8,312 bases of DNA from a virus (taxonomy: Duplodnaviria; Heunggongvirae; Uroviricota; Caudoviricetes). The stretch covers positions 1 to 8,312 of the IMG/VR virus record IMGVR_UViG_3300014770_000037; one strand, given 5' to 3'. A model generated the notes under the pieces. It searched no databases. It was given only the letters and a program-made list of their open reading frames with translations, and was not told the origin of the DNA. A program made the translations under genes and the position numbers. Position 1 is the first letter of the stretch, and each line of letters starts with the position of its first letter. Shown in pieces: positions 1 to 8,312 of the stretch.

Positions 1-695
1 ATTGCACAAGGTTGGAACGATGAACAACTGATCGCTAACGCTGCTACAGGTGCTGCCGCTGGTGTAGGCGCTGCTACAGGTGCTGCCGCTGGTGTTACGC
101 CGATCGGACGTGCACCTTCAGGCATTGCAGGAGCCGCACCGAACACAGAGGCAGGAGCCGGACCGGAAATGATTTCTTCACCTGCATAAAGCAATTGCGC
201 CATTTCCATGTTGATATACACACCAGCCTGATTACCTGTACGACCGTTTGCAACAGATGATCCGCTGATACGGTAGTAATAACCTTTTTTCGCCAGATTT
301 TTATCAATAACTGGCTGGTACGCTGCGTTATAAACCGGACACGCGTCAATAGCCACGTTGCGTGAGAAACCAATTACCCAGTGACCAGCATAACCAGTTT
401 TACTCGCATGTTTCGGGTCGTCACCGTTAATAATTTTCCATGCGAAAGTAGGTTGTTGTGGTTCGCCATTCACATAGTGTGAATTAGCCGCTCGCATAAT
501 CGCCTGGAATACCGCACCCAGTTCACCTTGTTCTTCCCACCAGTTCGCCGCTGTTTTAGGAAACGCCAGACCAACCCACCAGTTGTGTTTTTCAGGTGCT
601 AACGGTTTGTTTTCGTGGTCATGGGTGTTGATATCGAAAAAAGAACCGCCAACCAGACGACCAACCGGAGTTACAAAAGATTCTTTCTGTGCCAT
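1..695 (-). CDS. putative phage ssDNA-binding protein (DUF2815-like), partial; C-terminal Pro/Ala-rich repeat linker; 3' end beyond window start
   Basis: Minus-strand ATG at 695-693 (cat on + strand) preceded by AAGAAGG (rc of 700-706), 15 nt after the upstream nuclease stop. The frame stays open for 231 codons to the window edge with no stop. Translation begins MAQKESFVTPVGRLVGGSFFDINTHDHENKPLAPEKHNWWVGLAFPK and ends in a linker TPAAAPVAAPTPAAAPVAA. Family call rests on the N-terminal pattern and on the position immediately downstream of a DUF2800 nuclease, the canonical DUF2800-DUF2815 pairing. Not in the ORF track because no stop lies inside the window. Confidence 0.6.
   Translation of the reverse strand, partial: MAQKESFVTPVGRLVGGSFFDINTHDHENKPLAPEKHNWWVGLAFPKTAANWWEEQGELGAVFQAIMRAANSHYVNGEPQQPTFAWKIINGDDPKHASKTGYAGHWVIGFSRNVAIDACPVYNAAYQPVIDKNLAKKGYYYRISGSSVANGRTGNQAGVYINMEMAQLLYAGEEIISGPAPASVFGAAPAMPEGARPIGVTPAAAPVAAPTPAAAPVAALAISCSSFQPCA
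39..98. repeat. 30-bp in-frame tandem duplication (2 units, 27/30 identical) encoding a Pro/Ala-rich linker
   Basis: Units 39-68 (cgctgctacaggtgctgccgctggtgtagg) and 69-98 (cgctgctacaggtgctgccgctggtgttac) read directly from the sequence. The period of 30 nt is 10 codons, so the reading frame is kept. On the minus strand it encodes roughly TPAAAPVAAP twice. Confidence 0.9.
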
Positions 696-710
696 GTTAT
701 TAACCTTCTT

Positions 711-1856
711 TTAAAGTGGACGTGCGCCAGTCGGCATCGTCACGGGTTTATTAAAAACAGATTCTGCCAGTGTGCTGTGACCTTTACGCGGGTCACTGTC
801 AGGTACTAAAACTGGCTGACCTTCTGGTTTTGTCGTACACATGTCAACAAGTGCCGGAGGCAGTGATTTTTCCAGTGTTGACAATGGTTTTAATTTACGT
901 TCGTACAATGTTTCAGGGTTTACACCAAACATGGGTGCAGCACCGATCAGTTTTCCTTCGTCCGTAAGCTGACGTCGGGTTTGTTTTGTTGCAAGTTTAA
1001 AACCCGGTAAAACTTTACCCATACGAACAAAATGTAACCCCTGAGTATGTAACGCTGTTTTTGCTTCAGAAGAACGCGTATACAGTTCTTCAAGAAGTGC
1101 CAGACGACGCGCTACTTCTTCTGGCGTAAGTGATGGTGGTGCATCAAGAACAGTAGCCAATTCTAAAACCCTCTCATACATCGCCGGACACATACCACGC
1201 GCCGGACAGTAATGACAATGACTACCAACATTTAAAGGTGCGTCTGGTTTATGTGCTTCGTTAAACCCGTGTTTAAATCGTTCAGCCCATTCCATCAATG
1301 TTGCCAGGTTAAACTCCCATCGTCTTACAGGTCCGAGTGGGTGATAAGCCCGTGGCTGAACAATTGTGAACACAACGCGCTTAACAGTGTCGATGCAACG
1401 TTGGTCCAGTGCATAATAGACCCCCTGTGAGTTATCAACTGCGTCAACTGCAACATGACCGTATTTATAATCCCATACATAAAGCGTATCAGTATTAAAG
1501 TCATACCAGCGATAATCACAGGTTCCGTACTGACCGGGTAACAACCAGTCAATGTGAATGCGAACTTCTGAAAACAGCGGATCAAGTTTCGCACCAACTG
1601 AAAGAACATCTGCTATAAAGTCATCCGCGTAAATGTGCATGTCTTCAGTAACCTGAACACCGTTAGGAGCAATACACGGCATTAATGGCTGTTTACCTTT
1701 AATCTTCTGTTCTAACACCCAGTGCCCGGCTGTACCTTCTTCAGCACTGGGTGATGATGGTTCTACATAATCAATCCGCTGTGACAGTTGAACGCTACCC
1801 GGACAAGCTAACCAACGTTTTGATCCACTGGCACTAAAGGTAGCGTGACTTGTCAT
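711..1856 (-). CDS. Cas4-like PD-(D/E)xK nuclease, DUF2800 family, with predicted 4-Cys Fe-S cluster
   Basis: 381-aa ORF. N-terminus MTSHATFSASGSKRWLACPGS matches the DUF2800 hallmark start (HA..SAS...RW..CPGS). PD-(D/E)xK-like core around VWDYKYGH. One N-terminal Cys (LACPGS) plus C-terminal C-x2-C-x5-C (GSHCHYCPARGMCPA, about nt 1187-1217) is the Cas4/AddB-type cysteine arrangement. Its ATG shares one nucleotide with the upstream gene's stop (TGATG at 1858-1854). Confidence 0.85.
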   Translation of the reverse strand: MTSHATFSASGSKRWLACPGSVQLSQRIDYVEPSSPSAEEGTAGHWVLEQKIKGKQPLMPCIAPNGVQVTEDMHIYADDFIADVLSVGAKLDPLFSEVRIHIDWLLPGQYGTCDYRWYDFNTDTLYVWDYKYGHVAVDAVDNSQGVYYALDQRCIDTVKRVVFTIVQPRAYHPLGPVRRWEFNLATLMEWAERFKHGFNEAHKPDAPLNVGSHCHYCPARGMCPAMYERVLELATVLDAPPSLTPEEVARRLALLEELYTRSSEAKTALHTQGLHFVRMGKVLPGFKLATKQTRRQLTDEGKLIGAAPMFGVNPETLYERKLKPLSTLEKSLPPALVDMCTTKPEGQPVLVPDSDPRKGHSTLAESVFNKPVTMPTGARPL

Positions 1857-2626
1857 CAGAATGCCCCACCCATTTGTTTAACAGATTCAGCCTGACCAAC
1901 AATGTTTTCAGCATCAGCCGGGGCCGCGTTAATGCGTTCAATCAGTTCGATGATAGATTTCAGTTTTACTGGGTCGTCAATCTGCATCACGTTCTGAGTT
2001 TCATACAGTCCCATGATTCGCTGACTTAATGGCGCGGCACGGTCACCCGTAATTTGTCCAAACATCTGCATTAGTGCTGACTGAAGAACCTGGGTATTAT
2101 AAACTTTAGCTGGATCCGTGGTTACAGGTTGCTCGACAGGCGCGACTGGTGCAGCCGGTGCTGCTGGTACAACTGGAGCTACCGGAGCGGCAGGAACCGC
2201 TGGAGCAGGATCAACAGGTGCTACATAACCCGGTGCAAGTTCTGCAGGTCCGGTATAACGCCCTGCTTCAACTGCTTCAGCAATAAGTTCACGTTTAACA
2301 CCGTCAACAAACGCTTCATCCAGTTTTTTCTTTTGACGCCACAGACCATCACCTTTGTTCAGGGATTTACTGTCAGTGTGGATACGTGGATCGTGGCGCA
2401 AACCCCATTTGTCGAACTCTTCAGTGCTGGTTTCGTTATCGTCAATATCTTCAGTTGTTGCTGATACAACAGGCAGTGATTCAGCAACGACTGTCACGGT
2501 TTCTTTAGTGATACCATCATCCTGAGCAGTCATGAGTGGTGCAGCACCAGTCGCAATAGCATTTGCCAGATTGTTGATCGCAGTTTCCAGACCCGGAGCA
2601 GTTACAAGTAATTTAACTTCGAACAT
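1856..2626 (-). CDS. hypothetical protein, two domains joined by a Pro/Ala-rich linker; function unknown
   Basis: 256-aa ORF, ATG at 2626-2624 with SD AAGAGGA about 8 nt upstream (rc of about 2634-2640). First gene of the leftward operon, directly downstream of a predicted promoter. Acidic segment TTEDIDDNETSTEEFDKWGLRHD, then linker PAPAVPAAPVAPVVPAAPAAPVAPV (residues about 126-166, nt 2129-2251), then a C-terminal domain of about 90 aa. No motif I can assign to a family. Confidence 0.75.
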   Translation of the reverse strand: MFEVKLLVTAPGLETAINNLANAIATGAAPLMTAQDDGITKETVTVVAESLPVVSATTEDIDDNETSTEEFDKWGLRHDPRIHTDSKSLNKGDGLWRQKKKLDEAFVDGVKRELIAEAVEAGRYTGPAELAPGYVAPVDPAPAVPAAPVAPVVPAAPAAPVAPVEQPVTTDPAKVYNTQVLQSALMQMFGQITGDRAAPLSQRIMGLYETQNVMQIDDPVKLKSIIELIERINAAPADAENIVGQAESVKQMGGAF

Positions 2627-2658
2627 TACGTTTTCCTCTTGTTGTTTGGTTATCGCTA

Positions 2659-2697
2659 ACTTTAAAAGGTGTTGTGTAATCTGTCAAGAATTATTTT
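2659..2697 (-). promoter_or_regulatory. putative sigma70-type promoter P1 for the leftward operon, with A/T-rich UP-like element
   Basis: On the minus strand: AAAATAATTC-TTGACA (-35, rc of 2682-2687), 17-nt spacer, TAAAGT (-10, rc of 2659-2664). Predicted start lies about 25 nt upstream of the ATG at 2626. The 15-mer GTCAAGAATTATTTT (2683-2697) recurs at 2747-2761 and, reverse-complemented, at 8054-8068. Confidence 0.45.
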
Positions 2698-2721
2698 TAC
2701 ACTCGCCTTTCGTTGATGCAG

Positions 2722-2761
2722 ATGTTAGAGGAATAAGTTGCAATACGTCAAGAACTATTTT
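2722..2761 (-). promoter_or_regulatory. possible second (distal) leftward promoter P2 carrying a near-identical UP/-35 element
   Basis: GTCAAGAACTATTTT at 2747-2761 is 14/15 identical to 2683-2697. On the minus strand it reads AAAATAGTTC-TTGACG (-35, rc of 2746-2751), 18-nt spacer, TAACAT (rc of 2722-2727). The -10 is weaker than in P1. Confidence 0.3.
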
Positions 2762-2766
2762 AAACT
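2738..2766 (+). promoter_or_regulatory. candidate rightward promoter for the helicase operon, overlapping P2
   Basis: TTGCAA (2738-2743), 17-nt spacer, TAAACT (2761-2766), about 37 nt upstream of the helicase GTG at 2803. Hexamer match only; it overlaps the oppositely oriented P2 element. Confidence 0.3.
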
Positions 2767-2802
2767 TTTTTCACGATTCGATATTAACTGAAGGAAAGAT
2801 AC

Positions 2803-4470
2803 GTGAGTCAACAACCACTTCGTCACTATCAACAAGATGCCGTTAACAACGTGCGCCAGGCATGGTCGAACGGTGCTGATGACGTGATTCTTGTACTTCC
2901 CACGGGTGCAGGAAAGACCCGAGCGCTTGCAGAACTGGTAAAATCCGACGGTGTAAAAGTCATCCAGGCACACCGTAAAGAACTGGTTAGTCAAATCGCA
3001 ATGGCTGTTGCTCGCCAGGGATTACCACACAGATTTATAGCGCAAAAAGATACTGTTAAGTTTGCAACTAATCAGCAGATGAAAACGCTTGGTTACAGTA
3101 CCTATTCCCCCGGCGCTGACATCGTTATTACCAGTTCACAAACGTTAAGAACAAAACAGTACGAACGATGGTACAACGACGTGTCTCTTGTATTCAGCGA
3201 TGAAGCGCATCACCTGGTACGTGGCACACAGTGGGGAGACTGCCGGGAAAAATTCCCTAACGCTAAAGGTCTGGGTGTTACAGCTACACCGATCCGTGCT
3301 GACGGTAAAGGCTTGGGTCGTCATGCGTCAGGTTACGCAGATCAGATGATCATCGGTCCATCAATGCGTGAGTTAATCAGCCAACAACACCTGGCTGATT
3401 ATCGCCTGATCATGGCTGAAACAGACCTGGAATTAACTGCAGAAATGATTTCCCATACTACGGGTGATTACAAACCCTCTGCGTTAAAAAAAGCGATGGA
3501 AGATTCAAACATCGTTGGTGATACCGTCAGTACGTGGAAAACGTACGCAGACGGTTTACTCACTGTTGTGTTTACGTGTGACGTAGATTCTGCTGAAGCA
3601 CTCGCAAAAGAATTTCGCGATGCTGGCATTCCTGCAGAGGCGATCAGCTCACGAAACAGCAATCAGGAACGAGCGGATATTCTGGAACGTTTTGAACGAC
3701 GTAAAACACTCGTGCTATGTAACAACGATTTATTCGGTGAAGGGTACGATTGCCCGGCGATGGAATGCGCTGTAATGGACCGTCCAACAGAATCTTACTC
3801 TTTGTTTGTACAACAGATGGGTCGACCATTGCGTTTCAAACCCGGTAAAAAAGCACTGATTATTGATAAAGTCGGTAATGTTCGTCGATTTCTGGCCCGT
3901 GGTTTTCCACTTCCCGATCAGCACTACAACTGGTCTTTAGATGACCGTGATCGTCGTTCATCTAACAGCAGTGGGAACAGTAATACAACATGTACAAACA
4001 AGGGTGATCCTGATAATGGTATTCCACCGTGTCTGAAGCCTTATCCGTCTGGTCTTCCGTGCTGCCCGTATTGTGGTCATATTCCTGAAAAAGCCGAACG
4101 CTCAGGCCCGGATCGTGTAGAAGGTAATTTACGTGAACTGACACCTGAAGAATTGGAAGAATTACGCCGGGCAGTGGTGATAATCGACCGTGACCCTGTT
4201 GCAGTAAAAGAACAAATGTTAAACGCTGGTGCACCCCCTATTGCAGCTTACAGTGCAATGAAAAACATTCAGGCAATGAACGATGCACAGCGTAAATTAC
4301 GCAGTATGATCACCACATGGGCGGGTATTCAGCGTGATAAAGGTATACCCGTTGATGACGCTTACAAGATGTTTTACAGGGTGTTTGGTGTTGATGTACT
4401 TAGCGCTCAGGGGTTACGTACTCGTGAAGCTAATGAACTCGCCGCAAGGGTTGCAAGTTCATTAATCTGA
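2803..4470 (+). CDS. superfamily 2 DEAH-type DNA helicase with C-terminal Cys-rich (zinc-ribbon-like) insert
   Basis: 555-aa ORF with GTG start at 2803 and SD AAGGAAAG at 2792-2799. N-terminal LRHYQQDAV (Q-motif-like), Walker A LPTGAGKT (nt 2902-2919), motif II FSDEAHH (DEAH at 3199-3210), motif III TATP, motif VI QQMGRPLR (about 3811-3834). Ser/Asn-rich linker followed by C-x12-C-x9-CC-x2-C-x-H (nt 3991-4080). Confidence 0.9.
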   Translation: MSQQPLRHYQQDAVNNVRQAWSNGADDVILVLPTGAGKTRALAELVKSDGVKVIQAHRKELVSQIAMAVARQGLPHRFIAQKDTVKFATNQQMKTLGYSTYSPGADIVITSSQTLRTKQYERWYNDVSLVFSDEAHHLVRGTQWGDCREKFPNAKGLGVTATPIRADGKGLGRHASGYADQMIIGPSMRELISQQHLADYRLIMAETDLELTAEMISHTTGDYKPSALKKAMEDSNIVGDTVSTWKTYADGLLTVVFTCDVDSAEALAKEFRDAGIPAEAISSRNSNQERADILERFERRKTLVLCNNDLFGEGYDCPAMECAVMDRPTESYSLFVQQMGRPLRFKPGKKALIIDKVGNVRRFLARGFPLPDQHYNWSLDDRDRRSSNSSGNSNTTCTNKGDPDNGIPPCLKPYPSGLPCCPYCGHIPEKAERSGPDRVEGNLRELTPEELEELRRAVVIIDRDPVAVKEQMLNAGAPPIAAYSAMKNIQAMNDAQRKLRSMITTWAGIQRDKGIPVDDAYKMFYRVFGVDVLSAQGLRTREANELAARVASSLI

Positions 4471-4511
4471 TGGTAATCTGCATAGAAATATTTTAAACGT
4501 AAGGAACTGTA

Positions 4512-5018
4512 ATGCGTGATTTGATGGTTGACATTGAGACGTGTGGTACTAAACCAGGTTGTGCAGTGCTGTCAATTGGCGCTGTTTACTTTGATCGTCA
4601 GGGTAACATTGGTGAAACGTTTTACGCATCAATGGGTTTTAATGCGCTCGCTTACGGTCACACAGACCCTGACACTATGAAGTGGTGGTCGCAGCAGTCA
4701 GAACAAGCACAAAAAGATGCTTTTGGTGGTACTGCCGATCCTGTTCAGGTTGCTAAAGATTTTGCCAAATTCATCTGGCACGATGCTAAACCGTGGGGCA
4801 ATGGTTCCACATTCGATATCACTATTCTGGAAGCATGGTTTAATGCGATTGGTGTTCGTTGCCCGTGGAAGTTCTGGAACGTCCGTGATGTTCGTACCGC
4901 TGTTGATTTGCTGGGTATTAACCCGAAAGAATTTACCCGTGACGGTACTTACCACAATGCGTTAGACGACTGTTTACACCAGATTAAATATCTTACTAGT
5001 GGGACTAAAACATTATGA
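4512..5018 (+). CDS. DnaQ-like DEDDh 3'-5' exonuclease
   Basis: 168-aa ORF, SD AGGA at 4501-4504, 7 nt before the ATG. Exo I-like MVDIETCG (D at 4530-4532, E at 4536-4538), Exo II-like GNGSTFDI, Exo III-like YHNALDD (H-x4-D). Stop overlaps the next gene's start (ATGA at 5015-5018). Confidence 0.85.
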   Translation: MRDLMVDIETCGTKPGCAVLSIGAVYFDRQGNIGETFYASMGFNALAYGHTDPDTMKWWSQQSEQAQKDAFGGTADPVQVAKDFAKFIWHDAKPWGNGSTFDITILEAWFNAIGVRCPWKFWNVRDVRTAVDLLGINPKEFTRDGTYHNALDDCLHQIKYLTSGTKTL

Positions 5019-5506
5019 CAACGCTTGAACAATGGGCGATTCGTCACGGTATTAGTCAGATGGCGTTGTACGAGTTATACGCGCTTTATCAGCCTGATGG
5101 AACACCACACGAAGACGGTGTAAGTGAAAGCGCCACCAGTAAAGAGTGTGAACTGATTGCGGCACGCGCAGGGCAACGTATCTGGCGTAATAACTCAGGT
5201 GCTCTGAAAAACGAAAAAGGAATGATGGTTCGTTATGGTCTTGGTAACACCAGTGCGAAAATCAACGCTGTTATGAAGTCAAGCGACTACATCGGCATTA
5301 AAACCAAAATCGTTACACCGGATATGATCGGTTCGAAAGTGGGTGTCTTTATTGCTGCCGAAATGAAACGCCCTGACTGGCACATGACCCCGAGTGACAG
5401 ACGTGCACAAGCACAGGCCACTTTCGGTGCGATTGTTGAAAACGCAGGTGGTGAATTTCGTTTCATCACTCATCCTTCACAATTTGAAAAATGGATTAAA
5501 CAATGA
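5015..5506 (+). CDS. VRR-NUC domain nuclease (PD-(D/E)xK superfamily)
   Basis: 163-aa ORF. VRR-NUC-like pattern RIWRNNSGAL ... VRYGLG ... SSDYIGI ... GVFIAAEMKRP, giving the D ... E-x-K catalytic arrangement. Translationally coupled on both sides (ATGA overlaps at 5015-5018 and 5503-5506). Confidence 0.85.
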   Translation: MTTLEQWAIRHGISQMALYELYALYQPDGTPHEDGVSESATSKECELIAARAGQRIWRNNSGALKNEKGMMVRYGLGNTSAKINAVMKSSDYIGIKTKIVTPDMIGSKVGVFIAAEMKRPDWHMTPSDRRAQAQATFGAIVENAGGEFRFITHPSQFEKWIKQ

Positions 5507-5676
5507 ATACTGAACGCATTAAACGTCTGCAAAAACTGATTGATAACCACGGTATTGAGGCTGTTGCTAAACGTCTGAACGTTACTGAAATTCATGTTAA
5601 ACGTAATCTGCTTACCGGGCGATCTGCTATCAACCTGGTCAAACTGATGGCTGCTGAACGTCAGTTCGGAGCGTAA
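5503..5676 (+). CDS. small 57-aa protein, putative helix-turn-helix DNA-binding protein (not in ORF track, below 60 aa)
   Basis: ATG at 5503 overlaps the VRR-NUC stop; TAA at 5674-5676 lies 3 nt before the primase ATG at 5680, so it exactly fills the gap between two confident genes with no stop in frame. Translation MNTERIKRLQKLIDNHGIEAVAKRLNVTEIHVKRNLLTGRSAINLVKLMAAERQFGA. The segment GIEAVAKRLNVTEIHVKRNL has a helix-turn-helix-like pattern. Only a weak SD (TGGA, 7 nt upstream). Confidence 0.5.
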   Translation: MNTERIKRLQKLIDNHGIEAVAKRLNVTEIHVKRNLLTGRSAINLVKLMAAERQFGA

Positions 5677-5679
5677 ATT

Positions 5680-8034
5680 ATGAAAGGGTTACTGAACCGT
5701 AAACAGTGGGTCATGTGGCGACTTGAGACAGTTGCCGATCGTCCAAAACCAACGAAAGTACCATACAGCCCGGTACACGGTTATAAAGCCAGTACCACTA
5801 ACCCTAACGACTGGTCTGACTATCACACCGCGTTAGGTATGGCGCAAATGTACGGCATGTCTGGTGTTGGTTTTGTATTCACAGAAAATGACCCTTATTT
5901 CTTTATTGATGTCGATAACTGTCTGGTAGATCAGGCAACAGCCACATGGTCACCACTGGCGCATGAATTCGTAAACCGTTTTCCAAATGCTTACACTGAA
6001 GTCAGCCAGTCAGGAACAGGTTTGCATATCATCTGTGCTTATACCAGCATACCGGAAGGTTTTAACAGTCTGAACGACCAGAAAACCGGGCTGGAAATGT
6101 ACTGGCGTGATCGTTTCGTCGCGATGACGCTCACGGGTAATGGCGATGTTGATATTGATTATACCCAGGGCATTCATGATTCTATTGCCCGGTATGGTCG
6201 TATCCGTTCAGACCGTTCCGCACGCTGGACAACAGCACCCTGTGATGACTGGTCAGGTCCGGCAGACGATGATGAACTGATTAAAATGGCGTTAAATTCG
6301 TCCAGTGCTGCTTCAGTATTTGGTAATAAAGCGTCATTTGCAGATCTGTGGAATGCAAACGTTGAACGCCTGTCTGTGTCATACCCCAGCGACCAGGGAA
6401 AAGACTACAATGCATCTGCCGCTGATGCTGCCCTGTGCTCACACCTTGCGTTCTGGACAGGGAAAGATTGCGAACGTATTGAACGTTTGTTTAACCGTTC
6501 TGGGCTGGTTCGTGGTAAATGGACAGATCGTCAGGATTACCGTGAAAACACGATTTTGGGCGCTGTGGAACGTTGTGATACTGTGTATCGTAGTCAACCG
6601 ACAATGACACCAGAACTGATGAAAGCAGTCACACCAGCGCCTACCGTCGTTCCTAATGGTGGAACACCTGCGTACATGAGTGTGAAACCCGGTGAAGGTG
6701 CATATGGTTCAAACCATACGGTTAACGCATCCACGTTCGTTAATAACTATTATCCAAACAACACATTGATTTTTGTCCAGCAACAGCCGTACCGGTTCAA
6801 CGGTCGCGTGTGGGAACGTGTGAGTGAAGATGAACTGAAACATCAGATATCTATGGCAATGCTCGCCAGCGAACCAAAAGCTGACGTAATTAACGGTACG
6901 TACAAGGTTTTGTCGTATTTATTCACACGCGCTGATCGTGAGCTTGGAACATGGCCCGGCGTTGATGTATCACACTATATTGTTTGTCAGAACGGGATAC
7001 TGGATGTACACACGGGTAAATGTGATGCACATAACCCTGATTTCTTTACGACCAGTATTTTACCGTATAGCTACGATCCGTTTGCCCGTGCGCCAGCATT
7101 TGAACAGTTTCTTAATACAACTCTGGAAGGTGATCAGGAACGTATTGCACTGTTGCAGGAATGGTTGGGTTACATGCTTGTCAACTCGTACGACTATCAG
7201 AAAGCGATGTTGTTGATTGGTGCGCCACGTTCCGGTAAAGGTACGATTGGTCGCATCATTCAGGCACTGGTAGGTGATGAAGCGTATGCAGGGATCACAC
7301 TGGAGGGTTTAGCCAGTGATGCGGTACTTGAAACTGTGCTGGATAAATCTGTGCTGTTTATTGGTGATGCTCACAGTGTGTCCGGGCCTGACCGCAACCG
7401 AATTCTGGACCGTTTCAAATCTATTACAGGTTGTGATGCGATTCCGGTTAATCGTAAGTATAAAGGTGCATGGAACGGTCGTTTACCTGGACGTATGACA
7501 CTGGCTGCTAACAACATACCTGCATTTGCTGATGATTCCGGTGCAATGGCTAACCGTTTGCTGATCCTGCCGTTCAACATTTCGTTCCTGGGTCGTGAAG
7601 ATACCACTCTGGAAGCACGACTGATGAAAGAACTACCGGGGATCTGTAACTGGGCGATTGAAGGTTTACAACGGTTACGTGCAAACGGACGGTTTACTGA
7701 ACCAAAAGCAAGTCTGGAAGAACGTCAGGAAATTATGGATCAACAATCACCACTTAGAAGTTTTATCAGAGATTGTTGCGAATTGGTATCTGATGGTGAG
7801 GTGCACACTGAAGAACTCTATGGTCGTTATCGTCTCTGGAAAACACAGGAAGGTGGTCCAGCAATGACTAAAACTGCATTTAGTCGGGCGTTTAAATCCA
7901 CCCTTCGTGGTAAAGTGAAAAAAGACGTTGTTAATATAAATAACGTTCGACTAAACGGTTTCAGGGGTATTCGTCTTCTCCCTTTTCAGTCAACAGCTAA
8001 TGTAGTGCCTTTTCCACCTGCGAGTAATAGTTAG
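5680..8034 (+). CDS. bifunctional DNA primase-polymerase (prim-pol/AEP-type N-terminus, PriCT-like middle) fused to a C-terminal P-loop NTPase/helicase domain (P4/D5-type or DUF5906-like)
   Basis: 784-aa ORF, SD GGAG at 5667-5670. N-terminal FFIDVDN (D-x-D at 5908-5916) and SGTGLHIIC are typical of prim-pol domains. The middle region DDDELIKMALNSSSAASVFGNKASFADLWNAN resembles primase C-terminal (PriCT) domains. C-terminal Walker A LLIGAPRSGKGT (nt 7219-7245) and Walker B-like VLFIGDAH. Confidence 0.9.
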   Translation: MKGLLNRKQWVMWRLETVADRPKPTKVPYSPVHGYKASTTNPNDWSDYHTALGMAQMYGMSGVGFVFTENDPYFFIDVDNCLVDQATATWSPLAHEFVNRFPNAYTEVSQSGTGLHIICAYTSIPEGFNSLNDQKTGLEMYWRDRFVAMTLTGNGDVDIDYTQGIHDSIARYGRIRSDRSARWTTAPCDDWSGPADDDELIKMALNSSSAASVFGNKASFADLWNANVERLSVSYPSDQGKDYNASAADAALCSHLAFWTGKDCERIERLFNRSGLVRGKWTDRQDYRENTILGAVERCDTVYRSQPTMTPELMKAVTPAPTVVPNGGTPAYMSVKPGEGAYGSNHTVNASTFVNNYYPNNTLIFVQQQPYRFNGRVWERVSEDELKHQISMAMLASEPKADVINGTYKVLSYLFTRADRELGTWPGVDVSHYIVCQNGILDVHTGKCDAHNPDFFTTSILPYSYDPFARAPAFEQFLNTTLEGDQERIALLQEWLGYMLVNSYDYQKAMLLIGAPRSGKGTIGRIIQALVGDEAYAGITLEGLASDAVLETVLDKSVLFIGDAHSVSGPDRNRILDRFKSITGCDAIPVNRKYKGAWNGRLPGRMTLAANNIPAFADDSGAMANRLLILPFNISFLGREDTTLEARLMKELPGICNWAIEGLQRLRANGRFTEPKASLEERQEIMDQQSPLRSFIRDCCELVSDGEVHTEELYGRYRLWKTQEGGPAMTKTAFSRAFKSTLRGKVKKDVVNINNVRLNGFRGIRLLPFQSTANVVPFPPASNS

Positions 8035-8053
8035 TCATTGCACAAGGATGGGT

Positions 8054-8093
8054 AAAATAATTCTTGACGAATTACAGATGTGTGCGCTATAGT
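8054..8093 (+). promoter_or_regulatory. strong sigma70-type promoter with UP-like A-tract; begins a new rightward transcription unit
   Basis: AAAATAATTC-TTGACG (-35 at 8064-8069), 18-nt spacer, TATAGT (-10 at 8088-8093). Followed by SD AAGGAG (8111-8116) and ATG at 8125. The upstream 15 nt (8054-8068) is the exact reverse complement of 2683-2697. Confidence 0.5.
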
Positions 8094-8124
8094 CTGTACA
8101 TCAAGTGAACAAGGAGTGATTGTT

Positions 8125-8312
8125 ATGAAAAACATATTTGACCGTTTAATTACTGTTATTGTATTTCTTGTATCCGTAACACTCGCGTCTTGTATTGTCG
8201 GACTAATGACCCGTGGTAATCATGCGGAAACACCGTGGTGGTTTCTGGCGGGTCTTGGATTATTAGCGGCTGCGTGCATAACGGTCTTCTTTTTTGATTA
8301 CAGCACCGAATT
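8125..8312 (+). CDS. small membrane protein (two predicted transmembrane helices), partial; 3' end beyond window
   Basis: ATG at 8125 with SD AAGGAG 8 nt upstream; open for 62 codons to the window end. Translation MKNIFDRLITVIVFLVSVTLASCIVGLMTRGNHAETPWWFLAGLGLLAAACITVFFFDYSTE shows two hydrophobic stretches separated by a short polar loop. Not in the ORF track because no stop lies in the window. Confidence 0.6.
   Translation, partial: MKNIFDRLITVIVFLVSVTLASCIVGLMTRGNHAETPWWFLAGLGLLAAACITVFFFDYSTE

Follow-up and report, generated by a model that had tools for sequence, protein, structure and literature searches.

The window analysed here is an 8,312-nt stretch of viral DNA (positions 1 to 8,312 of the IMG/VR record IMGVR_UViG_3300014770_000037) which, judged from its sequence, is the replication module of a Sashavirus/9NA-like siphophage. 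Three copies of a short word lie within it, and we consider it very probable that these are the cores of clade-specific promoter copies that stand before the pre-replicative and accessory gene clusters of 9NA/Sasha-like siphophages. Escherichia phage KarinMuster_Bas82 (Bas82) matches the window at 96.7% identity across 99% of the window's length. Identity to the Salmonella phages Sasha, Sergei and Solent is ~96%, to SP-062 88% overall, and to 9NA 78.6% over the whole window; a set of Klebsiella phages is at ~78%, too.

A 26-bp element is repeated in the window and across related genomes

The first-pass annotation of the window had picked out a 15-mer, GTCAAGAATTATTTT, at 2683-2697 on the minus strand, a second minus-strand copy with one mismatch at 2747-2761 (GTCAAGAACTATTTT) and an exact reverse complement at 8054-8068 on the plus strand (AAAATAATTCTTGAC), and all three are present as described. 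Searching the window with AAAATARTTCTTGAC and allowing up to two mismatches, we recovered exactly these three matches and none further; shuffled windows hold a mean of 0.07 copies, and three copies were reached in 0/200 of them. The three words share the core AAAATArTTCTTGAC and carry the -35 hexamers TTGACA, TTGACG and TTGACG, the copy at 2683 having five A's (AAAAATAATTC) as compared with four in the relatives. It had also been noted that the copies lie in the only sizeable non-coding stretches of the window, and these are indeed 2627-2802 (176 bp) and 8035-8124 (90 bp), with the next one measuring 41 bp (4471-4511). Two parts of the initial description needed amending. The 15-mer does repeat, but the conserved unit is longer and spans 26 bp, at 2675-2700, 2739-2764 and 8051-8076. 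Moreover, both an ATTACA word and a -10-like hexamer had been credited to two of the copies: (G/A)ATTACA does follow the copies at 2683 and 8054, with TATTGCA taking its place at 2747, but the count of -10-like hexamers was too low, as all three copies have one.

For a wider search we assembled the genomes of five relatives in full from their annotated records (Bas82, 9NA, Carvaje, Sasha and Proteus phage Isfahan). Allowing a single mismatch at most, we found the element 14 times in Bas82 and 10 times each in 9NA and Carvaje, and BLAST places it at 7-12 positions per complete record in other 9NA-like phages. The 34 copies from Bas82, 9NA and Carvaje yield the 26-bp consensus TTTAAAATAATTCTTGACrgATTrCA. 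TTGAC, whose positions match in 32-34 of the 34 copies, lies within the search word; the flank positions beyond that word were not selected for, and there ATT is found in 34/34 copies, the C in 33/34, the A in 32/34 and the upstream TTT in 24-30/34. Orthologous copies in genomes with ~22% coding divergence keep all the invariant positions, whereas the flanks and both R positions vary freely, which points to selection and not to recent copying. The element is a discrete, multi-copy, intergenic 26-bp unit under purifying selection.

The placement of the copies supports the earlier suggestion that they form a family of promoters. The genome-wide search that had been proposed as its test, run on complete genomes of near and remote relatives, came out in its favour: the copies are intergenic, co-oriented with genes, at a fixed distance from start codons, and followed by TAnnnT at promoter spacing. 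All 14 Bas82 copies point towards a downstream start codon; counted from the C of TTGAC, it lies 55-71 nt away, or 120 nt in the case of the distal tandem copy. Intergenic sequence makes up 7% of the Bas82 genome, yet 11 of the 14 copies fall entirely within it (binomial P = 5e-11), and the remaining three overlap just the last bases of the preceding gene. TAnnnT lies 16-18 nt (nearly always 17-18 nt) after TTGACr in 31 of 37 copies, compared with a background of 4.6%, and four of the six exceptions read GATAAT, CATACT or CATAAT at this position. The genes served comprise replication and recombination enzymes, a dUTPase, a superinfection-immunity gene, a ParB-like gene and many small open reading frames (ORFs).

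Proteus phage Isfahan, whose helicase is 61% identical, carries a variant of the form TTTAAAATA...CTTGACAGATTACA: it keeps the blocks TTTAAAATA, CTTGAC and AGATTACA, and the three bases between the first two blocks vary. Isfahan also has other multi-copy words, namely AAAGTGAAACA (16-19 occurrences over both strands, that is, ~8-10 sites) and GTGTAACAGGTGCTTGTGACTG (9-10 occurrences, both strands counted); the related words ACAGGTGCT and CCTGTAGCA are repeated in Bas82 and Carvaje.

The copies have the layout of sigma-70-type promoters

The sequence features of the copies support reading them as sigma-70-type promoters with a proximal UP-like A-tract, and there is likewise support for a set of ~10-15 early gene clusters in 9NA-like phages placed behind this promoter for transcription by host RNA polymerase. 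Unmodified host RNA polymerase with sigma-70 (E-sigma70) would recognise the element through sigma region 4 on TTGACr and sigma region 2 on TAnnnT, and the C-terminal domain of alpha would sit on the A-tract at about -48 to -38, the proximal UP subsite. The block TTTAAAATAAT spans ~-48 to -38 and has four A's where the A-tract of the proximal subsite falls; the region of the distal UP subsite is not conserved among the 34 copies. As the -10 hexamers are non-consensus, activity would rest mainly on the UP and -35 contacts. A scan of the window for promoter-like hexamer pairs gave seven matches in all, three of which are the element copies, and two of these copies are the only matches at 10 of 12 positions.

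The proximal leftward element, PL1 (2675-2700, minus strand), consists of an A-tract/UP-like block (2688-2700), the -35 hexamer TTGACA (2682-2687) and the spacer block GATTACA (2675-2681). Its putative -10, TAAAGT (2659-2664), lies behind a 17-nt spacer, with a predicted start near 2652, a Shine-Dalgarno sequence AAGAGGAAAA at 2631-2640 and an ATG at 2626. The distal leftward element, PL2 (TTTAAAATAGTTCTTGACGTATTGCA, 2739-2764, minus strand), is located 64 bp upstream of PL1 and has the putative -10 TAACAT (2722-2727) after an 18-nt spacer, predicting a start near 2715. PL1 and PL2 would act as tandem leftward promoters of an operon that runs from the gene for a 256-aa protein through an exonuclease gene and a single-stranded DNA-annealing protein (SSAP) gene to a DNA polymerase gene.

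The right-end element (ggtAAAATAATTCTTGACGAATTACA, 8051-8076, plus strand) has orthologues in Bas82, 9NA and Carvaje. Its -35 is TTGACG (8064-8069) and its putative -10 TATAGT (8088-8093, 18-nt spacer), with a predicted start near 8100, the Shine-Dalgarno sequence AAGGAG at 8111-8116 and an ATG at 8125; it would start an accessory-gene cluster beyond the primase gene. What appears to be the relic of a second, upstream promoter copy lies at 8031-8058 (plus strand), with a degenerate -35, TTAGTC, across the primase stop codon and the -10 TAAAAT. The relic spacer ATTGCACAAGGATGgGTAAA is identical at 19/20 positions to the spacer of the Bas82 copy at 54802, and the relic is found in 9NA, too, and absent in Carvaje. 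The leader behind the right-end element joins the lipoprotein-like gene directly at ATGAAA (8125-8130). The window has no homologue of gp75/0075, the first gene after this promoter in Bas82, Sasha and 9NA, and Bas82 gene 0076 is missing as well. The leaders of PL1, PL2 and the right-end element fold no better than shuffled sequences, no terminator-like hairpin was found at any of the three window copies, and the window gave no Rfam matches at E <= 1.

Judging by the genes served (replication, recombination, dUTPase, immunity and small ORFs), the element promoters probably fire early. Late genes of Bas82, 9NA and Carvaje are preceded by a different signal, a conserved extended -10 box TGnTAnAnT with no -35 (e.g. 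gTGgTAAACT and cTGaTATAAT). Boxed genes include those for TerL, portal, head morphogenesis, holin and an XkdF-like protease (Carvaje annotation), as well as the major tail protein (9NA) and the tape-measure protein (Bas82). The boxes often lie back-to-back with a leftward early promoter, 30-45 bp from its A-tract. This arrangement suggests a two-class promoter architecture, early versus late, in which a switch that disables -35/UP-dependent initiation would, by analogy with AsiA and ModA of phage T4, shut off the whole early set together.

A candidate rightward promoter is interleaved with the distal leftward copy

In the divergent region 2627-2802, 9NA and Carvaje have only one copy, and PL1 is its positional orthologue. 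PL2 is limited to the Sasha-like group, with no counterpart in 9NA and Carvaje; its G variant is kept in Bas82, Sasha and SP-062. These three genomes and the window differ among themselves at just three positions between the leftward start codon and 2787. Homology of the window to 9NA breaks off exactly at 2697, where the upstream edge of PL1 lies, and is picked up again at 2802; in this interval 9NA and Carvaje have a small ORF with translational coupling to the helicase gene.

The 5' end of the helicase gene contains a mosaic junction (window 2787-2830). Past the word GATATTA, the window has a 9NA-type leader and N-terminus (GTG AGT CAA CAA CC...), whereas Bas82, Sasha and SP-062 start with ATG AAA GCT CGT. 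Consistent with such a junction, tblastn matches of the helicase to Sasha-like phages begin at residue 7 and those to 9NA at residue 1.

The most likely promoter of the helicase operon is a weaker rightward one, TTGCAA-17-TAAACT. This candidate (2738-2766, plus strand) combines the -35 TTGCAA (2738-2743), a 17-nt spacer and the -10 TAAACT (2761-2766), with a predicted start near 2773; its -35 is the complement of the PL2 word ATTGCAA, and its -10 begins at the last T of the A-tract complement. Because the hexamers are interleaved, polymerase presumably could not hold PL2 and the rightward promoter simultaneously. The same geometry is found on the single copy of 9NA and Carvaje (TTGCAA-17-TATGAT, in a different sequence context) and at the Bas82 copy at 9455, facing gene 0021 (TTGCAA-17-TAAAAT), and in Isfahan a complete copy of the element, pointing rightward, precedes the helicase gene. 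Taken together, these comparisons point to a rightward promoter interleaved with a leftward one as a recurring design. The initial proposal that a helicase promoter overlaps the two leftward copies is plausible but weaker than the family reading: the only conserved candidate overlaps just the distal copy and matches the consensus at 8/12 positions.

Two further readings of ATTrCA were rejected. The divergent reading needs a base next to ATTrCA that gives TTGCAA and a flank that gives TAAAnT; ATTrCA as the -35 of a universal divergent promoter accordingly fails at most copies and fits just the helicase and gp29/0021 loci. A second, overlapping -35 within ATTrCA is not accompanied by a -10 at the corresponding spacing.

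Some copies keep the flanks and lose the -35 core

The 41-bp spacer between the helicase and exonuclease genes holds a degenerate inverted copy, TTTAAAATATTTCTATGCAGATTACC (4472-4497, minus strand), which matches 21/26 consensus positions. Its -35 core is replaced by TATGC and no -10 follows; 9NA and Carvaje have TAAAC at this place. Such core-swapped copies, which keep at least 17/21 flank positions and replace TTGAC with TATAC, TAAAC or TATGC, are expected 0.2 times per shuffled genome. The TATAC core recurs at four independent loci in the relatives. In Isfahan the TATAC copies lie 25-32 nt from a start codon, and there the core could serve as a -10 hexamer (TGCTATACA at 22768).

Distribution outside 9NA-like phages

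Among 50,697 phage records, the element is confined to 9NA-like phages (29 records, with 203 places in all) and to two temperate phages of Klebsiella that have one copy each. In IMG/VR there are many copies per 9NA-like contig and one per contig in a set of Klebsiella-type prophages. A search of 185,579 species-representative bacterial genomes returned four matches, three in unrelated metagenome-assembled genomes (two of them low-GC) and one in a CRISPR spacer. This near absence indicates a phage element, and we rejected the idea of a host chromosomal promoter type. The 32-nt spacer, TTAAAATAATTCTTGACGTATTGCACTGATGT, belongs to a type I-F CRISPR array (repeat GTTCACTGCCGTACAGGCAGCTTAGAAA) of Yersinia pekkanenii A125KOH2 (NZ_CQAZ01000023, ~1140-1200, minus strand); as it is the promoter element itself, the Yersinia host appears to have taken it from a 9NA-like phage promoter.

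The Klebsiella-type prophages each carry one identical 26-mer, TTTAAAATAATTCTTGACGGATTGCA (region 4740-5264 in one contig), between a tail-fibre/tailspike-like gene and a 229-aa ORF. The cargo behind it varies, being either two divergent HicB(DUF1902)/HicA pairs or a 172-aa membrane protein; PADLOC gave no matches on this moron cargo, and no homology to 9NA-like phages was seen in the sequences flanking the 26-mer. Its occurrence, in identical form, before the HicB/HicA morons of these prophages suggests that no factor beyond host polymerase is needed for its use.

Points against the promoter reading and alternative explanations

Several observations weigh against reading the copies simply as promoters. 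The window holds fewer promoter-like matches than its shuffles, with the copies scoring 9-10/12, and just 5/14 Bas82 copies reach 10 of 12, a recovery on which we rejected plain hexamer scoring as a way of finding the family. The rightward helicase candidate, at 8/12 matches, is not flagged by the promoter scan and is not set apart experimentally from other AT-rich intergenic words. Core-swapped copies exist that keep the flanks and lose TTGAC, some of them antisense to their operon, a pattern that a pure promoter model does not predict. The literature that we searched yielded no transcript 5' ends, reporter or timing data for these phages. Finally, we know of no contact between E-sigma70 and the spacer block gATTrCA (~-29 to -23, in the upstream half of the spacer), so that a model with RNA polymerase alone leaves a quarter of the conserved positions unexplained.

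The last of these points is what a composite of promoter and operator would address. Here the 26-mer would also be bound, over the -35, by a conserved phage or host protein that contacts the flanks TTTAAAATAATTC and rGATTrCA and switches all the early units off, or on, together, an addition to the promoter reading and not a replacement for it. ATTrCA is invariant though RNA polymerase has no known need of it, the linker AATTC is invariant in the 34 copies of the Escherichia/Salmonella/Klebsiella group (and variable in Isfahan), and core-swapped copies keep the flanks at several independent loci. A weak dyad, TAATTC-N5-GGATTA, can moreover be read centred on the -35, but it fits at 6/8 positions, and the copies have R at the outer one. 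We found no candidate regulator, and the 26-mer is the promoter context of morons in unrelated Klebsiella prophages where there is no 9NA-like factor; conservation of the flanks could also reflect constraints from ribosome-binding sites or from sense-strand promoters. On balance we regard a bound protein as a tentative addition, with the odds against it.

Taken further, the composite site could be read by an early phage protein or by a polymerase modification, turning all early units off while the extended -10 late promoters escape; the Klebsiella hicBA prophages would then mimic the 26-mer as an infection sensor, and the core-swapped copies would either serve purely for binding or form a second class of promoter on the same scaffold. 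We offer this as a long shot. If true, early shut-off by an invading phage would silence antitoxin synthesis and so trigger abortive infection.

Recombination offers a different account, in which the copies are kept mainly as homology patches for the gain, loss and exchange of gene clusters, in the manner of the PeSL cassettes of T4-type phages, and promoter activity is secondary. The clearest case is a 3.6-kb, ten-gene segment of Bas82 (54802-58442) that is missing in Sasha (1725-1741): two direct copies bound it and the junction falls inside the element. The exact stop of window/9NA homology at 2697 and the presence of the 26-mer in Klebsiella prophages with no flanking homology fit as well. 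Between Bas82 and Sasha, 5/14 copies lie within 100 bp of a breakpoint (reached in 154/5000 random placements), and counts within 30 bp were 3/14 (72/2000), 3/14 (114/2000) and 3/9 (15/2000). Within the promoter reading, too, the indel and the stop at 2697 suggest that the repeated copies may also serve as joints of genome mosaicism. The breakpoint enrichment is modest and would be expected of any intergenic feature. Furthermore, a length of 26 bp is short for homologous recombination, the copies have no stem-loop as a constant partner, and the account leaves the TAnnnT spacing, the co-orientation and the constant start-codon distance unexplained. As the main reason for the copies, recombination is improbable.

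An invariant, multi-copy element of 23-26 bp has the look of T7-type promoters, and in its length, invariance, copy number and orientation ours resembles the promoter families of single-subunit RNA polymerases. A promoter for a phage-encoded RNA polymerase or sigma factor is nonetheless very hard to credit: no such gene is annotated in the genomes of Bas82, 9NA, Carvaje, Sasha or Isfahan, the element has a consensus -35 with TAnnnT at 16-18 nt, and prophage morons use it. Iterons of a replication origin in the divergent region of the replication module, suggested by two direct copies 64 bp apart between replication genes, can practically be dismissed, as the copies are dispersed over the whole genome with one per gene cluster, 9NA and Carvaje have one copy in this intergenic region, and each copy has a -10, a Shine-Dalgarno sequence and a start codon at fixed distances. 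In an informal comparison by eye with consensus sequences, no site for IHF, Fis, CRP, DnaA, TyrR, Lrp or lambda CII fitted the element.

Relation to known systems and previous annotation

UP elements of the Escherichia coli rrnB P1 type, the subject of work by Ross and colleagues in 1993 and Estrem and colleagues in 1998, reportedly have a proximal subsite AAAAAARNR at -46 to -38. As in UP-element promoters, the A/T tract of the element abuts a consensus-like -35, the -10 follows at 17-18 nt, and strength presumably comes from upstream contacts. The element differs in that its tract is only of proximal-subsite length and invariant in sequence, and in having the ATTrCA block in the spacer.

Unmodified host polymerase reads the A1, A2 and A3 promoters of T7 and the early promoters of T5 and T4. 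Here, too, tandem host-type promoters, PL2 and PL1, would head an early operon, and, as in the T7, T5 and T4 early promoters, more positions are conserved than in host promoters. The sequences are, however, unrelated, and the element is dispersed on a circularly permuted genome, whereas the T7 promoters are clustered at the end that enters first. The T4 switch involves AsiA, which blocks recognition of the -35, and ModA/Alt, which ADP-ribosylate alpha so that UP function is lost. The putative early class with its -35 and UP contacts and the late class with its extended -10 TGnTAnAnT and no -35 make up an architecture that a switch of this type would exploit, but no AsiA-, ModA- or MotA-like gene was identified here.

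Stoperators of cluster A mycobacteriophages (the L5 gp71 sites, GGTGGMTGTCAAG) are repressor sites of temperate phages and mostly not promoters. Like the element, they are asymmetric, multi-copy, oriented and intergenic words, and their complement holds a -35 (CTTGAC). Unlike them, the element copies have a -10 and a gene at fixed distance, occur in virulent phages and have no known binding protein.

Of the systems described so far, the closest is the PeSL cassette of T4-type phages, in which a sigma-70-like early promoter is combined with a stem-loop (PMC2839356, PMC4122927). Both systems comprise many early promoters of a strong type with AT-rich upstream sequence, placed before small genes of unknown function in plastic regions. 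PeSL copies bound indels between relatives, and one clean case of this kind, Bas82/Sasha, is seen here. The element lacks a constant stem-loop, although a minority of the Bas82 copies, among them those at 54802 and near 1870, abut a terminator. There are ~10-15 element copies compared with ~50 PeSLs, the phages are siphoviruses and not myoviruses, and the early islands are inverted inside the late operon.

The element was partly anticipated by the GenBank record of AVIO78A (MZ726797), which annotates seven promoters, two of them, labelled sigma-70, being orthologues of window 2659-2687 and 8064-8093. That only 5/14 Bas82 copies stand out by hexamer score is probably why the annotators list only seven. 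The GenBank records of Sasha (whole) and 9NA (replication region) have no promoter features, the 9NA genome announcement does not mention promoters, and the word 'promoter' is absent from the Sergei and PDP46 papers. A text search of the literature for the motif, whose scope did not include the genomics paper of Zeng et al. 2019 (J Virol), returned nothing relevant. The element is an ordinary kind of phage regulatory element and does not overturn current understanding.

Its value lies in giving a putative transcription map, with ~10-15 dispersed early promoters of one invariant type, to a phage group with no known molecular study of its life cycle. Many of the mapped early promoters stand back-to-back with extended -10 late promoters, and the map would account for the expression of inverted small-gene islands inside the virion-gene operon. 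The 26-mer itself is a compact promoter candidate, probably strong and portable in enterobacteria. With its spacer block, the sharing with Klebsiella toxin-antitoxin morons and the possible use as a recombination joint, it offers a tractable system in which to study early shut-off and the exchange of promoter cassettes. Worth pursuing are above all the spacer block, the copies with a swapped core and the moron promoter shared with prophages.

Gene map of the window and minor observations

The leftward replication/recombination operon (minus strand) starts with the gene for the 256-aa protein of unknown function (1856-2626, phrog_27827), followed downstream by a DUF2800/PD-(D/E)XK exonuclease gene (711-1856) and a Gp2.5-like SSAP gene (left end to ~695). 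The rightward operon (plus strand) is headed by an SF2 DNA helicase gene (2803-4470, with a GTG start at 2803) and continues with a 3'-5' exonuclease gene (4512-5018) and the primase gene (5680-8034). Beyond it, a small lipoprotein-like gene begins with the ATG at 8125 (plus strand).

A 30-bp tandem repeat, CGCTGCTACAGGTGCTGCCGCTGGTGTAGG, is present in 1.9 copies at 39-95, within the SSAP gene. Bas82 has ~8 copies of this repeat, and the Sasha record annotates a 171-bp repeat region. The ends of the window (7-40 and 8274-8312) match Bas82 only in inverted orientation (Bas82 38040-38007 and 47317-47279), a short distance outside the collinear block, and may represent a contig-end assembly artefact or small local inversions.

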